A program made the translations under genes and the position numbers. Shown in pieces: positions 3,986 through 63,667 of a stretch of DNA of 64,000 nt. Numbering within the stretch: the stretch's first letter is position 1; the number at the start of each line of letters is the position of its first letter. Origin of the DNA: a bacterium (GTDB lineage: Bacteria; Blakebacterota; Blakebacteria; Blakebacterales; JAWOFN01); assembly GCA_046497505.1 (NCBI GenBank), contig JAWOFN010000112.1:8834-72833 (forward strand), read 5' to 3'. The notes under the pieces are model-generated. The model ran no database searches and was not told the DNA's origin. It worked only from the letters and a program-made list of their open reading frames with translations.

Positions 3986-4144
3986 ACGGAGCACTCCTTG
4001 CCCTTGTGATGAGGACGGTCCGGTCTTCTCTGTCCATGCTACAGTCTGGCCCCGCAGAATCTGCAACACAACCCGTCCCGACCGTGCCCCTGCCTCCCGC
4101 ACTCGGGGCATGTGACGGTGCTCACCCTCAGGTCGGAGGTCCGG

Positions 4145-4642
4145 TCACTCAGTGACGGGGGGGAGCCCTTCCAGTGCCAGGTCCACTTCATCGCACAGCA
4201 TACGCACACAGGAGGGCACGGCCGACCGGACCACCGGGGAGAGGGTTCCCCCGGGGCCGATCCAGGAGGGTTCCACCCCCAGAATCACCAGCCTTGAGGG
4301 AAGCATTTCCAGCCGCTCCCCCAGGTGCACCAGGTCGAGGAGGTCCCCCTCATGGAGGGAGATGCCCGGGAGTTCCTTCGCCGACCGCACATCCTCCGGG
4401 GTGAATCGGCGCATCGTACCGGGGGACTCGCCCATCCGGGCGCAGTCCACCAGGATGGCGGCGCTGCGTCCCTCCATGGCATAGAGCAGGGACATGCCCC
4501 CGGTACCCGCATCCACCGCCTCCACCAGGGGCGATGGTCCCCTGGAGGCGAGAAAGGCCTCTACCACCGCCGGACCCACCCCCTCGTCACCCATGAGGGG
4601 GTTGCCGATCCCTGCCACGAGGAGGGGCGGGGCGGTATGCAT
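4145..4642 (-). CDS. hydrogenase maturation endopeptidase (HyaD/HybD/HycI family)
   Basis: LLVAGIGNPLMGDEGVGPAVVE matches the GxGNxxxxDDGxG signature. The ATG overlaps the large-subunit stop codon in TGATG, indicating translational coupling. Confidence 0.8.
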   Translation of the reverse strand: MHTAPPLLVAGIGNPLMGDEGVGPAVVEAFLASRGPSPLVEAVDAGTGGMSLLYAMEGRSAAILVDCARMGESPGTMRRFTPEDVRSAKELPGISLHEGDLLDLVHLGERLEMLPSRLVILGVEPSWIGPGGTLSPVVRSAVPSCVRMLCDEVDLALEGLPPVTE

Positions 4643-5952
4643 CAGACGAACTCCACCTCCAGATGATGGGTCGAGCAGGAGATGCACGGGTCGTAGGAAC
4701 GGACCAGCATCTCCAACAGGGACCGGAGTCCGTCCTCTCCCCTGTCGAGGTAGCGCGGGACCAGGGCCTCGAAATCCTTCTGGATGTTGCCATGGTTCTG
4801 GTTGGTGGGGATGCAGATGTTGGCCCTCACGCAGTTCCCCGCCCCGTCGAACTCGTACCGGTGGAACAGGATCCCCCGGGGTGCCTCCACCGATCCCACA
4901 CCTTCCCCGGCCGTGGGCAGGACGGAGGGTTTCTCGGGACGGATCCCCCGGGTGAGGAGTTCGTCGATGAGGAGCAGGCCGTGCTCAACGGTCTGGACGA
5001 CCTCCACCACCTGGGCGGCGTTGTTCATATAGGGGTTCGTACACCCCTTTTCGAGTCCCAGTTCCCCGGCCGTCTTGAGCGCCAGGGGGAGGAGCGCGTC
5101 CGCATTGAGGTTGAAGCGTGCCAGGGCCCCCACCGCGTAGGCGTCCCGATGCCACTTCGTCCACTTGGCGGTGGACAGGGGACTGACGTATTCGTTCGCC
5201 ACGCGCTCGAACTCCTGCACCGGGACCCGTTCGTCGGTATCGGAAGAGCCGATGCGCCCTTCGTAGAAGGGATAGGCGCCCTCTTCCACCAGGGCGATGT
5301 ATTCGGTCTCCCGCTGGAAGTCCGGGAAACCGTCCGCGAGGGATGCCACTGCCTCCGCGATCGCCACCAGGTCGGGGACCACCGCCTGGAAACGCTCCTT
5401 GAAGTCGAGGAGCTGGGCGGCTGTCGGGAGGCGGGTGAAGCCCCCCGGAACGACGGTGACCGGATGGGTCTGCCTGCCCCCCAGCCAGTCCATGACCTCG
5501 TTGCCGAGCCGGTGGGCCCGTATGATGGTCTTCACCAGGTCGGGATGACTCTCCAGGAGCGGCACCACGCTGGGCTGACCCAGCAGGTCGGGTGCTGCCA
5601 GGTAGCCCACGTGGAGCACGTGGCTCTCCATGTACTCACCGTAGTGGAGCAGGGTCCGGAGCATCCGGGTCTGTTCCGAGACCCCGATGTCCATGGCATC
5701 CTCGATGGCCTTGACGGCTGCCAGGGAATGGCTCACCGAGCAGATCCCGCAGATCCTGCTAACGATGGTCTGGATGTGTTCCCAGGAACGGTCCCGCACC
5801 ATGGCCTCGAAGAACCTGGGGGCCTCGGGGACCTGCCACTCCACCCTCTCGATGGTCCCGTCGGAGGCCCGCACCGCGATGTTGCCGTGACCTTCGACCC
5901 GGGTGACATGATGGACATCGATCTGCACGGTGCGTGATGTGGTCTTCGCCAT
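4642..5952 (-). CDS. hydA: [NiFe] hydrogenase large subunit (alpha), group 3b sulfhydrogenase-like
   Basis: N-terminal RVEGHG and RICGICSVSH (RxCGxCxxxH) and C-terminal DPCISCSTHH (DPCxxCxxH) Ni-Fe ligand motifs. About 437 aa, short as in group 3. Start ATG at 5952 has a GAGGAG RBS. The ORF track begins at GTG 5967. Confidence 0.85.
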   Translation of the reverse strand: MAKTTSRTVQIDVHHVTRVEGHGNIAVRASDGTIERVEWQVPEAPRFFEAMVRDRSWEHIQTIVSRICGICSVSHSLAAVKAIEDAMDIGVSEQTRMLRTLLHYGEYMESHVLHVGYLAAPDLLGQPSVVPLLESHPDLVKTIIRAHRLGNEVMDWLGGRQTHPVTVVPGGFTRLPTAAQLLDFKERFQAVVPDLVAIAEAVASLADGFPDFQRETEYIALVEEGAYPFYEGRIGSSDTDERVPVQEFERVANEYVSPLSTAKWTKWHRDAYAVGALARFNLNADALLPLALKTAGELGLEKGCTNPYMNNAAQVVEVVQTVEHGLLLIDELLTRGIRPEKPSVLPTAGEGVGSVEAPRGILFHRYEFDGAGNCVRANICIPTNQNHGNIQKDFEALVPRYLDRGEDGLRSLLEMLVRSYDPCISCSTHHLEVEFV

Positions 5953-5963
5953 GGTCGGGCTCC

Positions 5964-6695
5964 TCACTTGGTTCCGAAGAGGTGCATGCGTCGCTCCAGG
6001 TCCTCTTCGGTCTTACCGTACATGTCCATGATCTCCTTGGCGGCCCCCACGTTGGCATAGGGGATGTATCCCCTGCATCCATAGCAGTAGGCTCCCGCCG
6101 AGGGACAGCAGGCGTCACATCCCGCCCGGGTGATGGGCCCCAGACACACCTCGTCGTACTCGAATCGACAGACGTTCCCTCGGGCCTTGCACTCCACACA
6201 CACCGGGTAGTCGGGGATCACCGGGGTCTTCCCGATGGCCAGGCAGCGGACCACGTAGGCGAACTCCCGGGGGTTGATGGGACACCCTTCGACCCGGTAG
6301 TCCACCTTCACCACCTCGTCGAGGGCCTTGGTGGGGGCGGTGTCCAGGTGAGGCATGCCGGCGTCATCACCGTATACCGTCTCCCGGACCTCCTCCATGG
6401 CGTACCGGTTCTTCAGCCGGTTGACCCCGCCTCGGGTCGCGCACGCCCCGAGGGCCACCAGTATCTCGGCACGGTCCCGTATGGCCCGGAGCCGCTCCTC
6501 GTCCTCCCGCCGCGTGATGGAGCCCTCGACGATGGCGATGTCGTATTCGTTGCTCTGCTCGCTCATCGCCTCCCGCCAGGCCACGGGCTGCACCACGGTG
6601 AGCAGGTCGAGGAGCTGCTCCTCCAGGTTCACGATCTGGAGCTGACAGCCCTCACAGCAGGCGAAGTCGAAGATCGCGACACGGGGCTTGCTCAT
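5964..6695 (-). CDS. hydD: [NiFe] hydrogenase small subunit (delta), group 3b
   Basis: Start MSKPRVAIFDFACCEGCQ with the proximal FeS cluster cysteines, plus further Cys clusters (CPINPREF, CVECKARGNVC, CDACCPSAGAYCYGC). Its ATG overlaps the gamma-subunit stop in TGATG. Confidence 0.8.
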   Translation of the reverse strand: MSKPRVAIFDFACCEGCQLQIVNLEEQLLDLLTVVQPVAWREAMSEQSNEYDIAIVEGSITRREDEERLRAIRDRAEILVALGACATRGGVNRLKNRYAMEEVRETVYGDDAGMPHLDTAPTKALDEVVKVDYRVEGCPINPREFAYVVRCLAIGKTPVIPDYPVCVECKARGNVCRFEYDEVCLGPITRAGCDACCPSAGAYCYGCRGYIPYANVGAAKEIMDMYGKTEEDLERRMHLFGTK

Positions 6696-7567
6696 CAGAT
6701 GGCCTCCGGGAGGTTGCGGATATCCGAGAGCCGGAACACCGGCCCGTCCTGACAGCAGTAGATGTCGTTGATCTGGCATCGGCCGCACTTACCCACCCCG
6801 CACTTCATGTGCCGCTCCAGGCTCACGAAGGTGCTCTCCTCGTCCAGGCCCTTCTTGTGGAGTTCCGCGATCACGAACCGGTACATGGCAGGGGGGCCGC
6901 ATACCACGGCCACGGTCCGTTCGGGATCCACATCCACGCCGGGGATCAGGGTGGTGATCACCCCCGAGTTGCCGTGCCAGTGCTCGTCTGCCTGGTCCAC
7001 CGTCTCCAGGAAGGTGATGTCGTCCCGGTCGCGGAAGTCGGCCAGGTCGTCACGGAAGAGGCGTTCACGCGGCTCCTTGCATCCGTAGAGGATGGTGATC
7101 CGCCCGTACTGCTCCCTGTGACGCGGGTCGAGGGTGTAGGTGATGGCAGACCGCAGGGGTGCCATGCCGCATCCCCCTCCCACGAAGAGGATATCCTTCT
7201 CCAGCATGTCCTCCTCCACCGGGAACCCGTGACCGAAGGGACCGCGCACGTAGATGCGCTCCCCCGGCTCCAGGGCGTGCATGGCGCCGGTGACGTTCCC
7301 CACCTTCCGCACCAGCATCCGGAAGGTGTCGCCCTCGTCGGGACTGGATGCGATGGAGATGGGCGCCTCGCCGATCCCCTGGATGCTCACCTGGACGAAC
7401 TGCCCCGGCATGTGCCCCAGGTGGATTCCCGATTCGAGCTGGAACTCGAAACAGGTGTCCAGGGGCGCCATGGGCTCCACGTCCAGCGTCACGGCGGGTT
7501 CGGGGACGTAGATGTGCTCGTTGACGCGTTCGGCCGTACTCTGCTGTGCGTCTGCGACCCGGGTCAT
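6695..7567 (-). CDS. hydG: hydrogenase gamma subunit, FAD/NAD(P)-binding oxidoreductase with C-terminal 2Fe-2S (HydG / AsrB-like)
   Basis: Ferredoxin-NADP reductase-like fold (RMLVRKVGNVTGAMH, ILFVGGGCGMAPLRS) and C-terminal CGVGKCGRCQ 2Fe-2S motif. Start ATG at 7567 overlaps the beta-subunit stop in ATGA. Confidence 0.8.
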   Translation of the reverse strand: MTRVADAQQSTAERVNEHIYVPEPAVTLDVEPMAPLDTCFEFQLESGIHLGHMPGQFVQVSIQGIGEAPISIASSPDEGDTFRMLVRKVGNVTGAMHALEPGERIYVRGPFGHGFPVEEDMLEKDILFVGGGCGMAPLRSAITYTLDPRHREQYGRITILYGCKEPRERLFRDDLADFRDRDDITFLETVDQADEHWHGNSGVITTLIPGVDVDPERTVAVVCGPPAMYRFVIAELHKKGLDEESTFVSLERHMKCGVGKCGRCQINDIYCCQDGPVFRLSDIRNLPEAI

Positions 7568-8589
7568 GATGAGACCTCCGCCAGGTGGTTGTAAACCTCC
7601 ACGGGGTTGGCGATCTTCGCCGGACAGGCGTCCACACACCGCCCGCAGCCCACGCATCCGCTGCTTCCGTACTTGTCCGCGATATACTTGCCCTTCCGGT
7701 AGTATCGATGCCGGTATCGGGAGGCCTTATCCTTCCGGAAGTTGTGCCCCCCCGCCACCCGCGCGAAAGGCTCCAGCATGCAGGAGTGCCAGTAGCGTGT
7801 CCGCGAACCGCTCGTGAGGTCCCAGTTCACGTCCTCGTGGACGTCGAAGCAGTAGCAGGTGGGGCAGACCATGTTGCAGGAGCCGCAGGAGAAGCAGAGC
7901 TCCGATTTATCCTCCCAGATCGGGTCGTCCCAGGAGGCGGCCAGGAGGCCGGGAAGGGTTTCGGGCGGCACCTTGAGCTTGAGCTGCTGGAGGACCTTCC
8001 GGTTCGTCTCCCACACCCGCTCGCGGGCCAGCAGGTCCTCCCGTCCCGCGTCGGGAGCATCCATGACGGGCACGGCCAGCTCCTCCCCCCGGTCGGTACG
8101 CCAGTCCAGGAGGTAGTGGCCGTCCACCCGGGTGAGGAGCACGTCGAAACCGTTCTCCACCGTGGCGGTCCCCATGCATCCCGCGAAGCAGTTCATGCCC
8201 GCCCGCTCCACGTCCGAGACCACGATGGCCGCCGCCTGGCGGAGGGCACGGTAGTGGGCGTCGAGGTTCCCCTGGAGGAAGATGGCATCCAGCTGGTTGA
8301 TGGCCGCCATGTCGTAGGGATGCACTCCCAGGAGCACGTACGGCTCCACCCGGTCGAGGGGCTGGTACTCCCCGTCCTTGAACTCCAGGAACCGGTCCTC
8401 GGGAGGGAGGACGTACTTCTTGGGCGGCAGGACCGTGGTATCGTAGTCGAGCCGCAGGTCCCCGGCATCCGCCAGGTCGTCGAATACGAATCGTTCCTCC
8501 CGGGCCTGGACCCCCACCACCCTCCCGAGCTCGATGAGCTCTTCCACCCATGTCCTCAGTACCTCGGGTTCCAGTCGTTTGACACCCAT
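7564..8589 (-). CDS. hydB: hydrogenase beta subunit, 4Fe-4S protein (HydB / AsrA-like)
   Basis: CFSCGSCNMVCPTCYC and CVGCGRCVDACP ferredoxin-type motifs. It is the first gene of the hydBGDA-protease operon, with the order seen in Pyrococcus sulfhydrogenase I. Confidence 0.8.
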   Translation of the reverse strand: MGVKRLEPEVLRTWVEELIELGRVVGVQAREERFVFDDLADAGDLRLDYDTTVLPPKKYVLPPEDRFLEFKDGEYQPLDRVEPYVLLGVHPYDMAAINQLDAIFLQGNLDAHYRALRQAAAIVVSDVERAGMNCFAGCMGTATVENGFDVLLTRVDGHYLLDWRTDRGEELAVPVMDAPDAGREDLLARERVWETNRKVLQQLKLKVPPETLPGLLAASWDDPIWEDKSELCFSCGSCNMVCPTCYCFDVHEDVNWDLTSGSRTRYWHSCMLEPFARVAGGHNFRKDKASRYRHRYYRKGKYIADKYGSSGCVGCGRCVDACPAKIANPVEVYNHLAEVSS

Positions 8590-8611
8590 GGGAGCCCCCG
8601 GTCAGGTAACA

Positions 8612-8627
8612 TGTGAAAGTTTTCACA
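8612..8627. promoter_or_regulatory. perfect CRP/FNR-family operator palindrome TGTGA-AAGTTT-TCACA, 22 bp upstream of the hydB start
   Basis: Read directly: TGTGAAAGTTTTCACA lies within an unusually AT-rich patch, flanked by a TATATTAT -10-like element on the gene strand. Confidence 0.45.
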
Positions 8628-8676
8628 AATAATATACCCTTTTCTACCGCCTCCGGGAAGCTCCATCAAACCGAAT

Positions 8677-8692
8677 AGTGAATTTTTTCACG
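8677..8692. promoter_or_regulatory. second CRP/FNR-like site AGTGA-ATTTTT-TCACG, 65 bp distal to the first
   Basis: Perfect GTGA-N8-TCAC core, with 4 of 5 matches to TGTGA/TCACA in each half. Centre-to-centre spacing to the proximal site is 65 bp. Confidence 0.3.
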
Positions 8693-8857
8693 TGCCCGCC
8701 GGGTAGGCCCCTGAAGTCATTATGCCGAAGGGACTTACGCATGAATCCCTCCCGGGGTCCTTTCGGTCCCGCCCCCGGCCCCCCGAAGACGCTTGCGGCG
8801 GGAGGCGCCGCAGGTCGCCCACTCACTCACCCACCCTCCCTCCGGGGGTGCGACCCG

Positions 8858-10006
8858 CTACTTCTCGAAACGCTCCACCACCGCCGGACCGACGGCGTCC
8901 CGGTGGACCATGATCCCCAGGACCCTGAGGGCGAACCAGTCCCCCCGCATCCACACGTAGCCCCGGCGGCCCGAACTGCTGCCGTGGGAGTTCTTGATCA
9001 GGTACCAGTCGTACCCGTCCACCACCCGGTGATCCACGGCATGGACCAGGTGGTCATCGGTGGTGCGGCGGTCCTCGAAATCGCGCTGGCGGTTCTCCTG
9101 GTCGATCATCAGGGGGCTGCCCATACCGGGATGGATCACCGCGATCCCCGCGCCGTTCCAGGAAGCCCCGCGGTCTCCCCAATCGGTGTCGATGGCCACG
9201 CTGAACCCCCGATCCAGCGCCCTGTTCATGATCCGGATGAAGTCGCCCAGGGGGACGTTGTAGTAGCCGTCGTAATCCCACCAGTTGTCCGGCACGTCCA
9301 GTTCGCCCCGGGTGTAGAAGGGGATGTCCGTGTAGGAGGTGAGTTCCCAGTAGGCGTCATAATCCAGCCCCAGGTAGTCGTCCGCGTACTCCTTCGGGGT
9401 CATCGAACGCTCCCCCACCCTGATCGAAGCGGGCGGAGGGGCCATATGGCGGTCGAGGACCTCGCGGACCCGCGATACCACCTCGTCCTCGTCCCAGGCC
9501 CCCTTCTCCTTCTCGTCCGAGATGACCGCGTTCAGGTCCCTGCGCATGGCACCGTAGTCCTCCACCACCGGGTAGTCCGCTTCCGGGACGATGCCGTACT
9601 CCCGGACGAGCCACACCGTGTCGTGGCTGAGCCCCCCATCGCTGAAGCGGGCCCCCTCGCCTCTCCGCTCCGCGTATTCCCGCGCCTTCTCCACGTAGGC
9701 CCAGTAGACAACGTAGTATTCGGAGAGATCCAGTTCCTCCCGCCTCCCCAGGGACTCGCGGACCGTCTCGTTGGCCCGGAGGACCTCCGACTCCAGGAAG
9801 GAGACGGTAGCGAAGTTCCAGCAGGTCCCCCCCCGCTGGGACTTGATCGAGGTGTGGGCGATGTCGGTACCCAGCCAGTTCGGGGCATGGATCGAGTCGA
9901 AGAAATGCTCCATGTCGGCTCGGCCCTGCCCCAGGGCGGGGGAGGTCCCCGCTAGCAGGAAGGTCGCTGCCAGCAGGACCGCCGTACGGCGTGCTGCTCT
10001 CTGCAT
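8858..10006 (-). CDS. C1 (papain) family cysteine peptidase, aminopeptidase C / bleomycin-hydrolase-like, secreted
   Basis: Signal peptide (LLAATFLLAGTSPALGQ). Catalytic QRGGTCWNFA Cys motif and a C-terminal HAV...NSHG His region. GGAGG RBS. Confidence 0.7.
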   Translation of the reverse strand: MQRAARRTAVLLAATFLLAGTSPALGQGRADMEHFFDSIHAPNWLGTDIAHTSIKSQRGGTCWNFATVSFLESEVLRANETVRESLGRREELDLSEYYVVYWAYVEKAREYAERRGEGARFSDGGLSHDTVWLVREYGIVPEADYPVVEDYGAMRRDLNAVISDEKEKGAWDEDEVVSRVREVLDRHMAPPPASIRVGERSMTPKEYADDYLGLDYDAYWELTSYTDIPFYTRGELDVPDNWWDYDGYYNVPLGDFIRIMNRALDRGFSVAIDTDWGDRGASWNGAGIAVIHPGMGSPLMIDQENRQRDFEDRRTTDDHLVHAVDHRVVDGYDWYLIKNSHGSSSGRRGYVWMRGDWFALRVLGIMVHRDAVGPAVVERFEK

Positions 10007-10309
10007 CGGTAGCCTCCGTTGAAGGATCGCCGGCCCGCATCACCATGGGTGCGGGTCCGTGTCCCCGGCAGGGGCCGGGGGCGATTCTGACTCCTCTCAC
10101 CATGCATGGGCCGGAGGGTCCGGACAACCGGTTTTCAGACCCTGATGTCTCGAATGTGAGGCGCTGTGCGTCCCGGGTGCCGTGGAGGTCATAGTATTGT
10201 GGACTTTACAGTATATTGAAACCCGCAGTAGTATCGCGTCGTATCACCCGCGTGGACGCCCGGGGAAGGCACCAGGGAGAGAGCCTCGGGCACAAGACCA
10301 GGAGGACGC

Positions 10310-10678
10310 ATGGAGGACGTGGAGGCTGCGGTCCAGAAGTTCCAGCGCGAGCTGAACTCGGGCACGGTGGCGCTGGTGCTGCTCAGCGTCCTGGAGGCCT
10401 CGAAAATGCCCCTGTACGGCTACGAGATCGCCCGGCGCCTGGACCGGGACGACGAAGAGGAGCCCCGGGTGAAGCAGGGCACCCTCTACCCCGTCCTGCG
10501 GTCCCTGGAGAGCGGCGGACTGCTGCGCAGCGAGGTCGAGCCCTCATCCTCCGGCCCGCCGAGGCGGTACTACCGGGTGACCGGCCTGGGGCAGGAGGTC
10601 CTGGCGGCCTGGGAGGAACGCTGGGAGAAGACGCGTGATTTCGTGGACGAGATCCGGAAGGGAGCAAACGGTGGATGA
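10310..10678 (+). CDS. PadR family transcriptional regulator
   Basis: Winged-helix signature LYGYEIARRL...GTLYPVLRSLESGGLL. AGGAGGA RBS. Size is typical of the family. Confidence 0.8.
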   Translation: MEDVEAAVQKFQRELNSGTVALVLLSVLEASKMPLYGYEIARRLDRDDEEEPRVKQGTLYPVLRSLESGGLLRSEVEPSSSGPPRRYYRVTGLGQEVLAAWEERWEKTRDFVDEIRKGANGG

Positions 10679-27036: not shown

Positions 27037-27178
27037 TCCCGGGATTCCCTTGAATCGTCTGCGGTTTCCCCGGCTCTTTACCTTTATGAGGGGCGGGAGG
27101 AGAAGCCCACCCGCCGGATGAACCGACCCGCGCGCCTCCACGACCGTGGGGCGCCGACCGATCATGAGAGGACCGAGT

Positions 27179-27832
27179 ATGCCGTTTCTGGACGAGAAGG
27201 TACAGGGTGAGGTGAGGGAGCAGCTCGCCGAACTCGAGGAGGAGGTCTCCCTCCTGCTGTTCACCCGCGAAGAGGACTGCCAGTTCTGCGACGAGACCGC
27301 GCAGCTGCTTCGGGAGGTCGCCGATCTGAGCGCGAAGGTGAACCTGGAGGTCCGCGACCTGGAAGAGTCCATGGAGGTCGCCGAGCATTACCAGGTCGAC
27401 AAGGTGCCGGCGCTGGTGGTGCAGGGTGAGCAGGACCACGGCATCCGATTCTACGGTATCCCCTCCGGATACGAGTTCGGCTCCCTGCTCGAGATCATCC
27501 GCCTGGTGAGCAAGGACGACCCGGAACTGGGCGAGGAGCAGCGCGGGAAGCTCGCTTCCCTCGAGCACCCGGTCCACCTCCAGGTGTTCGTGACCCCGAC
27601 CTGCCCCTACTGTCCCCGGGCGGTCGTGGCGGCGCAGAAGATGGCCATGGCCAGCGAGTGGGTCCGGGCCGACATGGTGGAGGCCAGCGAGTTCCCCGAA
27701 CTGACCCAGCACTATCAGGTACAGGGCGTTCCCAGGACGATCATGAACGAGGAGCACCACATCGAGGGGGCCGTCCCCGAGGAACACCTCCTGGAATGGG
27801 TACTCTCCGAGGCGGGGTCCTCCGGAGAGTAG
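27179..27832 (+). CDS. protein disulfide oxidoreductase, glutaredoxin-like with two thioredoxin-fold units (Pyrococcus PDO-like)
   Basis: Two CxxC sites (CQFC and CPYC) separated by about 110 aa. GAGAGGA RBS. Start ATG at 27179 (MPFLDEKVQ). Confidence 0.7.
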   Translation: MPFLDEKVQGEVREQLAELEEEVSLLLFTREEDCQFCDETAQLLREVADLSAKVNLEVRDLEESMEVAEHYQVDKVPALVVQGEQDHGIRFYGIPSGYEFGSLLEIIRLVSKDDPELGEEQRGKLASLEHPVHLQVFVTPTCPYCPRAVVAAQKMAMASEWVRADMVEASEFPELTQHYQVQGVPRTIMNEEHHIEGAVPEEHLLEWVLSEAGSSGE

Positions 27833-27910
27833 CACCCGGGAGGGATCGCTCCGGGAGCGGGATGCCGGCTGGCTGTTGCAGACCCCGGCCCGGCATGCGA
27901 TGCTGGGGAC

Positions 27911-28534
27911 ATGGATCCCCCGACATCCTCCCCGAGGGAAGACCGACAGGAGAAGGAACTCCTCCAGGCCGCAGCCGAAGGGGACCCGGAGGCGTTCACC
28001 TCCCTGATGGACCTGTACGAGGACCGTCTCTTCGGCTTCGGTATGCGGATGTGCGGGCATCGGGAGGACGCGGAGGACATATTCCAGGAGACCTTCCTCA
28101 CCGCCTTCCGCAAGCTCGATCAGTATCGGGGTGAGGGGTCGCTCAAGAGCTGGCTCTTCAAGATCGCCTCCTCCCACTGCCTCAAGAAGAGGCGGAAGCG
28201 GTCAGGTGAACCGGACCAGCACCTCTCGGTAGAGGAACTAACACCCGAGCGTCTCCGCCCCATCAGTCAGGGGCCCTCCCTGACCGGCGACCCCGAGGTA
28301 CCCCTGGAGGTGGTGCTGAAGGATGAACTCTCCCGGCACATCACCGGGGCCATCGAAGCCCTCCCCCCCGACTACCGGGTGGTGCTGATGCTGCGCGACG
28401 TGGAGGGCTTCAGTACCGGGGAGACCGCGGAGATGCTCGAACTCTCCGAGTCGGCGGTCAAATCGCGTCTGCACCGGGGGCGGATGGCGGTGCGGGAGTA
28501 CCTGCAGCCCTATCTCGAGGAGGGTGCCCGATGA
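27911..28534 (+). CDS. RNA polymerase ECF sigma factor (SigR/RpoE-like)
   Basis: Sigma70 region 2 (DIFQETFLTAFRKLDQYRG) and region 4 (VLMLRDVEGFSTGETAEMLELSESAVKSRL). Confidence 0.85.
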   Translation: MDPPTSSPREDRQEKELLQAAAEGDPEAFTSLMDLYEDRLFGFGMRMCGHREDAEDIFQETFLTAFRKLDQYRGEGSLKSWLFKIASSHCLKKRRKRSGEPDQHLSVEELTPERLRPISQGPSLTGDPEVPLEVVLKDELSRHITGAIEALPPDYRVVLMLRDVEGFSTGETAEMLELSESAVKSRLHRGRMAVREYLQPYLEEGAR

Positions 28535-28788
28535 GCGGTGAAGAGATCACCTGCCGCGAACTGGTGAATCGTCTCTCGCTCTACATCGACGGCGAGCTGA
28601 GACCCCGCATGCTCCGCGAGGTGGAACGGCACCTGGAGCGATGCGGCGAATGCAGCCACTGTGCCGACGAGATCAGGGCCACCATCCGCCTCATCCACGA
28701 GCGGGCGTACGAACCCCTCCCCTCTTCCGAACGTGAGCGGATGCGGACCCGGCTCTGGAGGAGCCTGGCGCTCGGCACCGGGGAGTGA
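28531..28788 (+). CDS. ZAS-type anti-sigma factor (RsrA-like zinc finger)
   Basis: Cys8, His34, Cys38 and Cys41 have the same spacing as the RsrA ZAS motif (C-x25-H-x3-C-x2-C). The ATGA overlap with the sigma gene is typical of sigma/anti-sigma pairs. Confidence 0.7.
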   Translation: MSGEEITCRELVNRLSLYIDGELRPRMLREVERHLERCGECSHCADEIRATIRLIHERAYEPLPSSERERMRTRLWRSLALGTGE

Positions 28789-28874
28789 GACCCGGCTTGC
28801 CGTCGGAAAACACCTTTCTCCCCTGCCCGCGATCCGGAACCTTGTCCTGTAGAACCCTACCGGGAGGTAATCCT

Positions 28875-29441
28875 ATGTACCGATTTCTGTTCCGCACCGC
28901 ACTTCTGGTCAGCTTCCTCGCCGTCGCCGCATGCGGCGGGCAGCAGGGCGAGGAGACCGTGTTGAACCTGCCCACCGGTCCCGACCGGGCCGTGGCCGTC
29001 CTCCACGCTCCGGACGGGTCCCCCCGGGGCACGGTGACCTTCACCGACACCGAGGAGGGGGTGAGGGTCGTCGCCGACGTCCGCGGGCTGGAACCGGGCG
29101 CCCACGGGTTCCATCTCCACGAGTACGGCGACTGTACCGCCTCTGACTTCACCTCCGCCGGAGGTCACTTCAATCCCACCGGAGCCCCGCACGGCGGCCC
29201 GGACGACCCGCAGCACCACGCCGGGGATTTCGGGAACATCATGGTGGGCGAGGAGGGCACCGGTCACGCGAAGCTGGTCTCCCAGATGATCAGCCTCGAC
29301 CCTGGACCCGCTTCCATCCTGGGCAGGGCCGTCATCATCCACGAGGGTGAGGACGACCTGGAGAGTCAGCCCACCGGTTCCGCCGGCGGACGCGCCGCCT
29401 GCGGGGTGGTGGGAAGAGCTCCCGCCCCGGAAGAGATGTAG
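28875..29441 (+). CDS. sodC: Cu/Zn superoxide dismutase, periplasmic
   Basis: Signal/lipoprotein N-terminus (LVSFLAVAACGG). HGFHLHEYGDC, GGHFNP, HAGDFGN and the C-terminal GGRAACGVVG Cu/Zn SOD blocks. GGGAGG RBS. Confidence 0.85.
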   Translation: MYRFLFRTALLVSFLAVAACGGQQGEETVLNLPTGPDRAVAVLHAPDGSPRGTVTFTDTEEGVRVVADVRGLEPGAHGFHLHEYGDCTASDFTSAGGHFNPTGAPHGGPDDPQHHAGDFGNIMVGEEGTGHAKLVSQMISLDPGPASILGRAVIIHEGEDDLESQPTGSAGGRAACGVVGRAPAPEEM

Positions 29442-56004: not shown

Positions 56005-58167
56005 TTAAAGGATTCCCGCCAGGATGATGACCAGCACAGCCGTGAGGGTGGCCAGCACGTAGTTCTGGATCCGGCCCGTCTGGATCTGGCGTGTGGCCGA
56101 TCCCGCGCTGCCCACCGTGCGTGCGGTGGCGTTCACCAGCCAGTCCACACCGTGCAGGTCTGCGTTCCCGCTGAACCGCGAGATGCCCCGGGTCACCGGG
56201 GCCGTGGCGTTCACGAAACCGTCGATGATCTTCGCGTCGAACCAGCCCAGCAGCAGCCGTCCCTTCATGACCGCCGCCACGAAGGTGACCCCGTACAGTT
56301 CGTCGAAGAAGAACTTCCCGTCGGCCAGCCGGTAGAGGGGTCCCATCCGTTCCGCCCAGGCCTCGGCGGAGAGCGACTTCTTGAAGTACATCAGGTAGGC
56401 CAGGAAGATCCCCGTGGCCGCCACGATGAGGCTGATGATCATGGCGATCAGGTGCTCCGGACCATGGTGGCCCGCACCGTGTGCCTCCTCAGCGTACCCC
56501 TGGGCCGCACCCGCCTCCCCGTGCTCACCGGCCTGTTCGGGCTGGTGTTCCCCCGGGAAGGCGGCCGGGAGGATCCGGGTCTCCCCGGCGGGGTGAAGGA
56601 CCCCCTCGGTGCGCTGCAGCCCGGCTCCCGCTGCATGTTCGGTCGCGGCAGCCGAGGTCTGTTCGTACGCGAAGTCGGGTTTCTGGATCAGGTGCGCGAA
56701 CCAGCCCTCCCCGCCGAAGGGATTGAAGGAGGGGAAGGTGAAGAAGAGATAGAAGCAGAGCACACCCAGCACGCTGAGCGGTACCGTCATGACCTTCGGG
56801 CTCTCGTGGGCGTGGTCGTACTTCTCGTGGTCCTGAGGCTCTCCGTGGAAGGTCATGAAGAGGAGCCGGAACATGTAGAAAGCGGTCAGCAGGGCGGCGC
56901 CGAAACCGAAGAGCGGGAGCAGGAAGTGCCCCGGCTGCTCCATGGCGAAGCCCAGCGTGCCGGCCAGGATGGCGTCCTTGCTTACGAAGCCGGTCGTGAA
57001 GGGAACCCCCGAGATGGCGAGGGTGGCCGCCAGGAAGGTGAGGTAGGTCACGGGCATCTTCTTCCTCAGCCCGCCCATCTCACGCATGTCCTGGGTGTGC
57101 ACCGCATGGATCACCGAGCCGGAGCCCAGGAAGAGCAGCGCCTTGAAGATGGCGTGGGTGATCAGGTGCATGAAGCCCGCCGTGTAGGCCCCCACCCCCA
57201 TGGCCATGACCATGTAGCCCAGCTGACTGATGGTGGAGTAGGCCAGCACCCGCTTGATGTCGTTCCGGACGATGGCGATGATGGCAGCCATCATGGCCGT
57301 GATGCCCCCGATGTAGGCGATGACGATCAGCGCCTCGGGGGTCAGCATGAAGAAGATCCGGGCGGTCAGGTACACACCGGCCGCCACCATCGTGGCAGCG
57401 TGGATCAGGGCGGAGACCGGGGTGGGACCCTCCATGGCGTCCGGGAGCCAGATGTGAAGCGGGAACTGGGCCGATTTACCGATGGCCCCCATGAAGAGGG
57501 TGATCCCGGCCGCGGTGAGCAGGCCTCCGCTCAGCCCTCCCGCTGCCACCCCGGCCGCGATGTCGTTCAGGTTGAAGGAGCCGATCGTGGCGTAGACGAT
57601 CCCCAGGCCGATGAGCATGCCCGCGTCACCCACCCGGTTGACGATGAACGCCTTCTTACCCGCCTGGCTGGCACTGAACTTCTCGAACCAGAAGCCGATG
57701 AGCAGGTAGGAGGAGACCCCCACCAGTTCCCAGAAGGCGTAGAGGGTGAAGAGGTTGTCGGAGAGGACGATCCCGGAGATCGAGAAGGTGAAGAGGCTCA
57801 GGTAGCCGAAGTAGAGACTGTACCGGGAATCCCCGTGCATGTAGCCCATGCTGTAGACATGGATCAGGAAGGTCACCAGCAGCACCGGGGTGAGCATGAG
57901 GGCCATCAGGTTGTTGGCCAGCACGCCGATGGTCATCTGGAAGCTTCCGATGCTGAACCACACGATCCGGGGGTTCTCCATCCATCCCGGGTCGTACAGG
58001 CCGATGGCCTTGAAGAAGATGGGCAGGCTCAGCAGCAGGGCGATGAAGACCGCCAGGACCGAGACCCAGTCTCCCTGCCGGGGCAGTTTCTTCCCGAAGA
58101 GCACGTTCACCCAGAACGCCAGGAAGGGGAAGAGCAGGATCAGGAGTGCCGTAGTGAGGAGGTTCAC
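56005..58167 (-). CDS. nuoL: NADH-quinone oxidoreductase subunit L, with an internal His/Glu/Ala/Gly-rich insertion
   Basis: 720 aa. WLPDAMEGPTPVSALIHAATMV and YSTISQLGYM blocks. GTG start with an AAAGGATAGGAG RBS. A low-complexity insert of about 70 aa (EHAAGAGLQRTEG...EHGEAGAAQGYAEEAHGAGHHGPEH) lies before the last TM helices. Confidence 0.85.
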   Translation of the reverse strand: MNLLTTALLILLFPFLAFWVNVLFGKKLPRQGDWVSVLAVFIALLLSLPIFFKAIGLYDPGWMENPRIVWFSIGSFQMTIGVLANNLMALMLTPVLLVTFLIHVYSMGYMHGDSRYSLYFGYLSLFTFSISGIVLSDNLFTLYAFWELVGVSSYLLIGFWFEKFSASQAGKKAFIVNRVGDAGMLIGLGIVYATIGSFNLNDIAAGVAAGGLSGGLLTAAGITLFMGAIGKSAQFPLHIWLPDAMEGPTPVSALIHAATMVAAGVYLTARIFFMLTPEALIVIAYIGGITAMMAAIIAIVRNDIKRVLAYSTISQLGYMVMAMGVGAYTAGFMHLITHAIFKALLFLGSGSVIHAVHTQDMREMGGLRKKMPVTYLTFLAATLAISGVPFTTGFVSKDAILAGTLGFAMEQPGHFLLPLFGFGAALLTAFYMFRLLFMTFHGEPQDHEKYDHAHESPKVMTVPLSVLGVLCFYLFFTFPSFNPFGGEGWFAHLIQKPDFAYEQTSAAATEHAAGAGLQRTEGVLHPAGETRILPAAFPGEHQPEQAGEHGEAGAAQGYAEEAHGAGHHGPEHLIAMIISLIVAATGIFLAYLMYFKKSLSAEAWAERMGPLYRLADGKFFFDELYGVTFVAAVMKGRLLLGWFDAKIIDGFVNATAPVTRGISRFSGNADLHGVDWLVNATARTVGSAGSATRQIQTGRIQNYVLATLTAVLVIILAGIL

Positions 58168-58173
58168 GGGCTC

Positions 58174-62399: not shown

Positions 62400-63185
62400 T
62401 CAGTCTTCCTTGTTGGCCAGCATGGCGTATTCGTCCAGGTTGGGACGCTGGGGCTGGTTCTTCTCGGGATCCTCGGCGAAGACCTGCTTCCGGGTCTCCG
62501 GACCGAGTTCGCCTTCCGGCACCTCGGGGGTCCAGAGGGATCCGATCTTGTACCCCAGCACCCGCTCCTTCTCGATCTTCTTCTTCAGGAGCAGGAATGC
62601 CTCGATGAGGGTCTCGGGACGGGGGGGACAGCCGGGAGCGTAGACATCCACGGGGATGATCTTGTCCACCCCCTTGACCACGTGGTAGCCGTGCTTCCAG
62701 TAGGGGCCTCCGCAGTTGGCGCACGAACCCATGCTGATCACGTAGCGGGGCTCGGCCAGCTGCTCGTAGAGACGCTTGATGCGCAGCCCCATCTTGTAGG
62801 TCACCGTCCCGGATACGATTATCACGTCGCTCTGCCGCGGCGTGTTCCGCATCACCTCGTATCCGTGCCGGGACATGTCGAAGCGGGTCGCCAGCGTGGC
62901 CATCATCTCGATCGCGCAGCAGGCCAGGCCGAAGCCCATGGGCCAGATGGATCGGGCCCTGCCCCAGGAGAGGAGCTTGTCCACGCTGGTCATGAGGACC
63001 GACTCGCTCAGGGACCGTACCAGGGAGGGCATCCCGGGCGTGGCTTCCTTCGGAGGGAGATCGTAGGGGTCCCTGTCCACCACCAGCTTCGCGGAATCGG
63101 TGGCCGGGTCTTCCCCGATGGCCTTGACGTCTTTGACCTCGATGAAACCGGTCTCGACGTTGCGCGGCTTCTTGCTGTCCGCCAT
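62400..63185 (-). CDS. nuoB: NADH-quinone oxidoreductase subunit B (20 kDa; N2 cluster) with extended N- and C-termini
   Basis: ORF 62400..63539 trimmed to ATG 63185 with an [33 protein letters not shown] and [11 protein letters not shown] Cys motifs. There are about 75 aa before the CC motif and about 65 aa after PGCPP. Confidence 0.8.
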
Positions 63186-63190
63186 GCGGT

Positions 63191-63667
63191 TCACTCTCCT
63201 GCCGTCGTGGCGCGTGGGGTGGTCGCCGCCCCGTGGTGCTTGAAGATCGCCTCCTCGGGCATCTCGACGTCTTCGCCGGTGAAGGCGGGACGGGGCTTCA
63301 CCCAGTCCAGGTCCCCCTTGGCCCAGGCGTAGACCAGGCCGAGGGCCAGGATGGAGATGAAGATGACCCCCTTGATGAAGGTGATGAGGCCTCTGCCCGC
63401 CGCCACTTCGTCCCCGAAGATGATGGCCCACGGGAACATGAAGAGGATCTCCGCCTCGAAGATGATGAAGGTCAGGGCCACGGTGTAGAACCGGAAGTTG
63501 TACCGGATCCGCGCTTCCCCCTTCGGCTCCTCCCCGCACTCGTAGGTGGCCAGCTTCTCCGGATCGGGATTCCGCGGCTGGAGGAGTCTCGAAACGAGTA
63601 TGCTGATGAAGACGAAGGCGGCCCCTGCGGCGAGGAAGACCAGGATGGTACCGAATTCTCCGCGCAT
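63191..63667 (-). CDS. nuoA: NADH-quinone oxidoreductase subunit A with a C-terminal soluble extension
   Basis: Start ATG at 63667 ([24 protein letters not shown]). The track start is TTG 63682. YECGEEP and [15 protein letters not shown] NuoA blocks. About 35 extra C-terminal residues. Confidence 0.8.

Follow-up and report, generated by a model that had tools for sequence, protein, structure and literature searches.

The hydrogenase locus

The window (the whole 64-kb stretch of DNA analysed here) carries on its minus strand a hydrogenase operon, as the initial annotation had proposed; this hydBGDA operon begins with hydB and ends with a maturation protease gene (Table 1). The best NCBIfam matches of the subunits are to Shy/Hyd sulfhydrogenase subunits, and the enzyme is therefore assigned to the group 3b-type NAD(P)-linked [NiFe]-hydrogenases. 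Its link to NAD(P)H/NAD(P)+ turnover is the FAD- and NAD(P)-binding gamma subunit of this HydBGDA-type hydrogenase; the true start of the gamma subunit gene, hydG, is probably downstream of the listed ORF start.

The window also encodes a complex I operon and an ECF sigma factor with its anti-sigma factor. The proteins closest to its NuoD are metagenomic (72-93% identity), followed by those of FCB-group phyla at ~60-64%. Among its other genes are peptidases, an amino-acid dehydrogenase and a Na+-pumping decarboxylase, which point to a lifestyle of peptide and amino-acid fermentation for the host. The sulfhydrogenase-type operon prompted consideration of an archaeal reading of the upstream region, as a BRE/TATA box with a repressor site; it was rejected on two grounds, the ECF sigma-70 factor and anti-sigma factor encoded in the window and a NuoD nearest to those of FCB-group bacteria.

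Table 1. Features of the hyd operon and of the region upstream of it, numbered from the first nucleotide of the window.
Feature	Position	Strand	Remarks
Hydrogenase maturation endopeptidase gene (HycI/HybD family)	4145..4687	-	final gene of the operon
hydA, [NiFe]-hydrogenase large (alpha) subunit	4642..5967	-	
hydD, [NiFe]-hydrogenase small (delta) subunit	5964..6788	-	
hydG, gamma subunit	6695..7657	-	FAD- and NAD(P)-binding domains
hydB, beta subunit	7564..8589	-	4Fe-4S dicluster domain (Fer4_22); best NCBIfam match sulfhydrogenase ShyB, HydB
Leader, O1 to ATG	8590..8610	-	GTTACCTGACCGGGGGCTCCC; 21 nt with a G-rich ribosome-binding stretch; 19/21 identical in relatives
Proximal operator O1 (predicted)	8611..8628	-	gene strand TTGTGAAAACTTTCACAT; 5' end 39 nt before hydB ATG
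-10-like element TATATTAT	8629..8636	-	TATATT or TATTAT, each 5/6 to TATAAT; present in the window
Candidate -10 TAGAAA (putative)	8641..8646	-	17 nt after TTGATG; weak match
Candidate -35 TTGATG (putative)	8664..8669	-	6 nt downstream of O2, inside the conserved distal block TTCACTATTnnGnTTGATG
Distal operator O2 (predicted)	8676..8693	-	gene strand ACGTGAAAAAATTCACTA; 5' end 104 nt before hydB ATG
C1-family peptidase gene, upstream neighbour of hydB	8858-10006	-	same strand as hydB, 268-bp intergenic region; gene start at 10006
PadR-family regulator gene	10310-10678		followed by a HAAS/"Sensor" membrane protein gene

Two palindromes upstream of hydB

Two palindromes lie between the peptidase gene and hydB: a proximal one, TGTGAAAGTTTTCACA, at 8612-8627, and a distal one, AGTGAATTTTTTCACG, at 8677-8692. 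Their positions are exactly those of the initial annotation, with 22 nt (8590-8611) between the proximal site and the hydB ATG (8589-8587, minus strand) and a start-to-start distance of 65 bp between the two sites. The centres of the corresponding 18-mers, O1 and O2 (Table 1), are likewise 65 bp apart, with O2 upstream. The surroundings had been described as the only strongly AT-rich stretch for kilobases. The 81-nt span containing both sites does rank 11 among 63,920 windows for A+T, but there is one other place in the 64 kb where 60-nt windows reach 58% A+T (10185-10248), and it is just 1.5 kb away; the description is therefore close to correct.

The palindromes had been described as CRP/FNR-type sites. 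Tested within the 64-kb window, the perfect TGTGA-N6-TCACA pattern does exceed chance expectation, with 1 copy against 0.02 expected. The proximal site matches the CRP pattern at 10 of 10 positions and the distal site at 8 of 10. CRP patterns with at most two mismatches are not enriched in the window (13 found, 16 expected from shuffles), so that by this pattern nothing marks out the distal site; its significance comes only from the longer core that it has in common with the proximal one, GTGAA-N4-TTCAC.

This longer core is that of operators for the redox-sensing repressor Rex. The Rex consensus TTGTGAANNNNTTCACAA, which passages of PMC5317091, PMC13077300 and PMC6391272 attribute to Ravcheev et al. 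(2012), is matched at 13 of 14 positions by O1 (gene strand TTGTGAA-AACT-TTCACAt) and at 11 of 14 by O2 (acGTGAA-AAAA-TTCACtA; the AAAA spacer fits W4), with all ten core positions matched in both. For Staphylococcus aureus the consensus is given as TTGTGAAW4TTCACAA (PMC2883068). In a scan of 63,983 window positions with the Rex consensus, O1 has the top score and O2 the second. The exact core GTGAA-N4-TTCAC occurs twice in the 64 kb, as O1 and O2; shuffling the local AT-rich 131 nt 200,000 times gave one copy on 21 occasions and two copies on none. There is no further Rex-like site in the 64-kb window, and thus no regulon is visible within it.

A TGTGA/TCACA core is common to CRP-family sites and Rex operators, and sequence alone therefore cannot separate the two. 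The positions specific to Rex are the inner A/T, present in both sites, and the outer T and A, present in the proximal one; by these, the sites fit a Rex operator better than a CRP/FNR site.

Conservation in close relatives

Two further proteins in the HydB 90% cluster led to three contigs (L089, L090, and L091) with the same operon and upstream region. These relatives come from the samples JGI 3300017991 and SRR7614767. Their HydB proteins are 86-87% identical to that of the window at the amino-acid level, with 69-70% identity at hydB third codon positions, while the intergenic background is 22-56% identical. Against this background O1 is identical at 18 of 18 positions in all three contigs, and conservation sets in exactly with the first base of the 18-mer. 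The conserved proximal block consists of O1 and the leader up to the ATG. Since this conserved block, of 43 nt, extends to the start codon, part of the conservation of O1 may come from constraint on the leader and its ribosome-binding site.

The distal block appears in the alignment as GTGA(A/G)-nnnn-TTCACTATTnnGnTTGATG. The half-sites of O2 are kept (GTGAA/TTCAC in L091, GTGAG/TTCAC in L089), with a spacer change from AAAA to ATGA, and the 65-bp spacing is kept as well, because there is no indel between O1 and O2. The footprint amounts to about one independent comparison, since L089 and L091 are 97% identical to each other. Taken with the counts above, it indicates that the palindromes are real, conserved and non-random sites in the hyd promoter region, with the predicted function of binding a regulator.

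A third conserved block is a short GC-rich inverted repeat after the peptidase gene. On the gene strand it reads TGCGGCGCC-TCC-CGCCGCA (8797-8820), ~40 nt past the peptidase stop codon; the stem is kept in the relatives and the loop varies, and no T-tract follows. It may separate the peptidase gene from the hyd promoter as a terminator or an insulator. As a strong terminator the GC-rich region after the peptidase gene was rejected, its predicted fold being no better than those of shuffles.

The closest metagenomic HydB homologues beyond these relatives (L081, L084, L085, and L086; 57-60% identity) have no Rex- or CRP-like site upstream, so this type of regulation would be limited to some lineages.

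Promoter candidates and leader

O1 and O2 flank two candidate promoters (Table 1). The first, TTGATG-17-TAGAAA, keeps its position in all aligned sequences, the relatives having TACATA (preceded by TGn) or CATAAT at the columns of the TAGAAA -10. It would place the transcription start near 8634-8635, with O1 at about +7 to +24 and the centre of O2 near -50, abutting the -35. The second uses the -10-like element TATATTAT noted initially, which is indeed on the gene strand (8636-8629) but is not conserved in the close relatives, where GTAAGGTA or GTAAGCTA replaces it. With TATATT or TATTAT as the -10, transcription would start near 8622-8624, with O1 over the start and O2 (centre 8684.5) near -61. 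The class-I-like position earlier ascribed to the distal site depends on this non-conserved element, and is lost with the conserved candidate. The repressor-like position ascribed to the proximal site is supported: under both candidates O1 lies at or after the start, where a bound protein would be expected to block RNA polymerase. A scan with the sigma-70 consensus gave one match, on the plus strand (8606-8633); being antisense, it was set aside as irrelevant to hydB.

The identity of the leader in relatives (19/21) exceeds that at third codon positions (69%). The ribosome-binding stretch accounts for part of this conservation, though perhaps not for the whole.

One explanation of the palindromes that does without Rex or CRP is that an unrelated or uncharacterised regulator recognises them, or that they work in the RNA, as small hairpins of the 5' leader. 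A stem of 5 bp and a loop of 4 nt are possible for each, pairing would be retained as G-U despite the A-to-G change that L089 has in its distal site, and the entire leader is conserved. The leader does not, however, have a predicted fold of greater stability than shuffles (z = 0.38), and neither an Rfam match nor a tRNA was found; the distal site would moreover be absent from the RNA, because it lies upstream of the start under either promoter candidate. As for a new protein factor, a known operator consensus and the gene order described below explain the data without one. We regard this explanation, in either form, as very unlikely.

hydB loci in other genomes

A profile search yielded 80 hydB loci from reference genomes, 51 of them with all four subunits. 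In nine of the 16 loci closest to the window, hydB is directly preceded by a rex gene of the same orientation (L003, L005, L007, L008, L010, L011, L013, L015, and L016; tblastn E 1e-28 to 1e-44). With 48-55% identity in HydB and ~60% in HydA, these include the hydBGDA operons of reference genomes closest to that of the window, and they come from Phycisphaerae, Pirellulales and Sedimentisphaerales (Planctomycetota), Kiritimatiellae and Verrucomicrobiota. In L007, for example, rex is at 5302-5901 and hydB at 6001-7023, and the Rex assignment is by NCBIfam (240 bits, cut-off 126).

An TTGTGAAWGTGARCACAA-type element (11-12/14) is present ~30-55 bp before rex in 7 of the 8 loci for which sequence upstream of rex is available, which fits autoregulation of a predicted rex-hyd operon in these genomes. 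The right half-site of these elements is (A/G)(A/G)CACAA instead of TTCACAA.

Rex-type sites were also sought in the 400 bp upstream of hydB, with a score of at least 13/14. Four loci have one (L009, L032, L046, and L059), against 0.007 expected from shuffled upstream regions, and the remaining 810 kb of the hydB loci have no site at this threshold. All four are complete hydBGDA operons, and in none is rex adjacent; the site in L032, at -34, is a perfect 14/14. A further locus, L012, has a 12/14 site upstream of hydB. Given the four metagenomic homologues above, which have no such site, the association of rex or Rex-type operators with hydBGDA is frequent, though not universal.

These results also bear on the possibility that the palindromes arose by chance in an AT-rich promoter region and have no specific function. 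A/T-rich near-palindromes do arise in such promoters, and the two-mismatch CRP pattern is no commoner in the window than in shuffles; but the two exact 10-base cores together were never reproduced by local shuffling, the sites are conserved against a diverged background, and the motif recurs before hydB in unrelated genomes. An origin by chance is extremely improbable.

Candidate regulators

The assignment of the palindromes to a CRP/FNR-superfamily regulator deserves fuller consideration. Such a protein (CRP/GlxR, ArcR, or HcpR-like) might activate from the distal site and either repress from the proximal one or use it as a second contact. The 5+5 core of E. coli-type CRP sites is identical to that of the proximal palindrome, and the distal one matches it at 8/10, but the inner A/T of both sites and the outer T/A of the proximal one are set by the Rex consensus and not by the CRP core. 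Of the CRP-core matches found before bacterial hydB genes, every one carries flanks specific to Rex, tTGTGAA...CACAa.

CRP acts chiefly as an activator, from sites upstream of the promoter; in E. coli, its class I sites are centred near -61.5 and class II sites near -41.5. With TATATT/TATTAT of the window as the -10, the centre of the distal site would be near -61, the classical class-I position. The -10 behind this geometry is not conserved in the relatives, however, and the better of the two sites would lie at or after the start.

Unlike Rex, CRP-family proteins occur in nearly all bacteria, but no crp or fnr gene was found in the 64-kb window by tblastn with E. coli CRP and FNR or by Pfam scans of ~50 ORFs. 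Nor was a rex gene, by tblastn with Bacillus subtilis and planctomycete Rex and by Pfam over the same ~50 ORFs. At the hydB loci of other genomes, rex adjoins hydB nine times, while a CRP-like protein is found nearby once, as a weak match (L058, E 9e-6).

For FNR, neither site matches the consensus TTGAT-N4-ATCAA, both being GTGAA/TTCAC, and FNR-type motifs are not enriched upstream of hydB homologues. For CooA, the consensus is TGTC-N8-GACA as given in PMC7306483; the proximal site has TGTG-N8-CACA and the distal AGTG-N8-CACG, and no CO dehydrogenase genes were seen in the 64-kb window. There is also a precedent for confusion of the two families: in S. aureus, sites with CRP-like motifs had initially been attributed to ArcR, a Crp/Fnr protein that proved not to regulate the genes concerned, and turned out to be Rex sites (PMC2883068). 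A CRP/FNR-superfamily regulator at hydB is accordingly rated as unlikely, if by no means negligible.

On balance, the palindromes are probably Rex operators preceding the hydBGDA-protease operon; comparing motif, conservation and gene order, we would put the probability of this at roughly two in three. Of the redox-responsive switch for H2 metabolism suggested by the initial annotation, the redox switch itself is retained as the best reading, while its attribution to CRP, FNR or CooA gives way to the Rex core and the rex genes adjacent to hydB elsewhere.

A proposed model for Rex control

Rex binds its operators at low NADH/NAD+ ratios and is released from them by NADH (PMC5317091, PMC13077300, PMC7306483). 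In the model proposed here, Rex dimers on O1 and O2 would bracket the core promoter of the hydBGDA-protease operon. At low NADH/NAD+, Rex would occupy a high-affinity O1, at or just downstream of the transcription start, and also a weaker O2, just upstream of the -35, and RNA polymerase would be excluded. Once electron acceptors were exhausted, NADH would rise, NADH-bound Rex would leave the operators, and the operon would be transcribed; the NAD(P)-linked hydrogenase could then vent surplus reducing equivalents as H2. For an NADH sensor, a hydrogenase that oxidises NAD(P)H makes a natural target. We infer in this model that Rex is encoded by the host genome and binds at O1 and O2, as well as the site at which transcription starts and the direction of regulation.

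A more elaborate arrangement can be imagined, in which O1 and O2 act as a cooperative pair (for instance through a DNA loop bridged by Rex-Rex contacts), or are read by a non-Rex regulator in a lineage lacking rex. If true, this would be an architecture undescribed for Rex-controlled hydrogenases; we consider it distinctly unlikely.

Comparison with known systems

The nearest published parallel is the hyd-3b cluster of Calderihabitans maritimus KKC1, which is preceded by a predicted Rex motif and induced under reducing conditions (PMC7306483). The two are alike in operon type (beta, gamma, small, large, protease) and in having a TTGTGA-N6-TCACAA-like palindrome, and derepression upon a rise in NADH/NAD+ has been proposed there (PMC7306483) as it is here. 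They differ in that C. maritimus is a Firmicute with an identified rex, RNA-seq support, and one reported motif (PMC7306483), whereas the window is from an uncultured bacterium with an FCB-like NuoD, and has two operators and no rex within its 64 kb.

In Caldicellulosiruptor bescii, Rex represses both NiFe and FeFe hydrogenase genes, with EMSA support (PMC6391272). Operators of the C. bescii/C. saccharolyticus Rex regulon are 18-20 bp TTGTGAANNNNTTCACAA sequences located tens of bp before the first gene (PMC6391272), as are those proposed here; the hydrogenases there are Ech group 4 and bifurcating FeFe enzymes and the binding is experimental (PMC6391272), while the enzyme in the window is group 3b-type and known from its sequence. 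In Caldithrix abyssi, an FeFe-hydrogenase operon begins with rex itself, and its operator lies 38 bp upstream (PMC5317091).

The rex-hydBGDA loci of the PVC phyla have rex directly before hydB and, mostly, a TTGTG-N8-CACAA element before rex. In the window, the gene upstream of hydB is for a C1-family peptidase instead of Rex, the putative operators directly precede hydB, and the full TTCAC half-site is kept.

The Rex boxes of S. aureus are within promoters or a few bp from them, mismatches lower their affinity, and ldh1 has two (PMC2883068). The consensus, an A/T-rich 4-nt spacer and a two-site promoter are thus common to S. aureus and the window. The S. aureus targets are fermentation genes, for which binding and transcription starts have been determined experimentally (PMC2883068); the sites in the window are predicted from its sequence.

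Implications

If correctly read, the locus adds an unexceptional case to a known class of redox switches. Published work already covers Rex control of hydrogenases, with a predicted group 3b case among them, and current understanding of Rex or of hydrogenase regulation is unchanged. Two aspects are mildly new, namely the two operators at a fixed 65-bp spacing around the core promoter and the rex-hydBGDA synteny in PVC phyla. To our knowledge the Rex regulon has not previously been studied in these phyla, and the rex-hydBGDA linkage would extend it to them. Given its occurrence across Planctomycetota, Kiritimatiellae and Verrucomicrobiota, this synteny suggests that group 3b hydrogenases are widely under Rex control.

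The model supplies a testable rule for an uncultured, peptide-degrading bacterium, namely that its NAD(P)-linked hydrogenase is made upon accumulation of NADH, and such a rule would help in reading H2-producing potential from metagenomes. It also offers a caution for motif-based annotation: as with ArcR and Rex in S. aureus, a perfect "CRP" palindrome can prove to be a Rex operator when the gene behind it is an anaerobic or redox one.

Other features of the window

Some further features of the window were noted. A palindrome resembling a CRP site with one mismatch, TGTGACGGTGCTCACC (4111-4126), coincides with the start codon of an M14 carboxypeptidase gene that closely follows the gene for the hydrogenase protease. 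Because neither L089 nor L091 conserves it and the inner A/T of Rex sites is missing, it was rejected as an operator and is probably due to chance.

There is no Rex-like site before the complex I operon within the window. A sequence matching the Rex consensus at 10 of 14 positions and its core at 9 of 10, TAGTGAGGAGGTTCACGG (58152-58169), is in coding sequence at the nuoK/nuoL junction, and is probably a chance match. In the same operon, the NuoB (Oxidored_q6) ORF (62400-63539, minus strand) is 379 aa long, with the domain at residues 207-316 only, and has a third-codon GC of 0.76 against ~0.9 in its neighbours; it may be a fusion, an over-extended ORF covering nuoA, or the result of a frame problem.

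At 27146-29441 is a cluster encoding a thioredoxin/glutaredoxin-like protein, an ECF sigma factor, a zf-HC2 anti-sigma factor and a Cu/Zn superoxide dismutase. This looks like an oxidative-stress module, present alongside a hydrogenase of an O2-sensitive type in the same organism.

Finally, 10185-10248, the sole other AT-rich island of the window, is between the divergent C1 peptidase and PadR-family genes (Table 1). It holds repeated AGTAT motifs (CATAGTATTGTGGACTTTACAGTATATTG...GCAGTAGTATCG), which might be a PadR operator.
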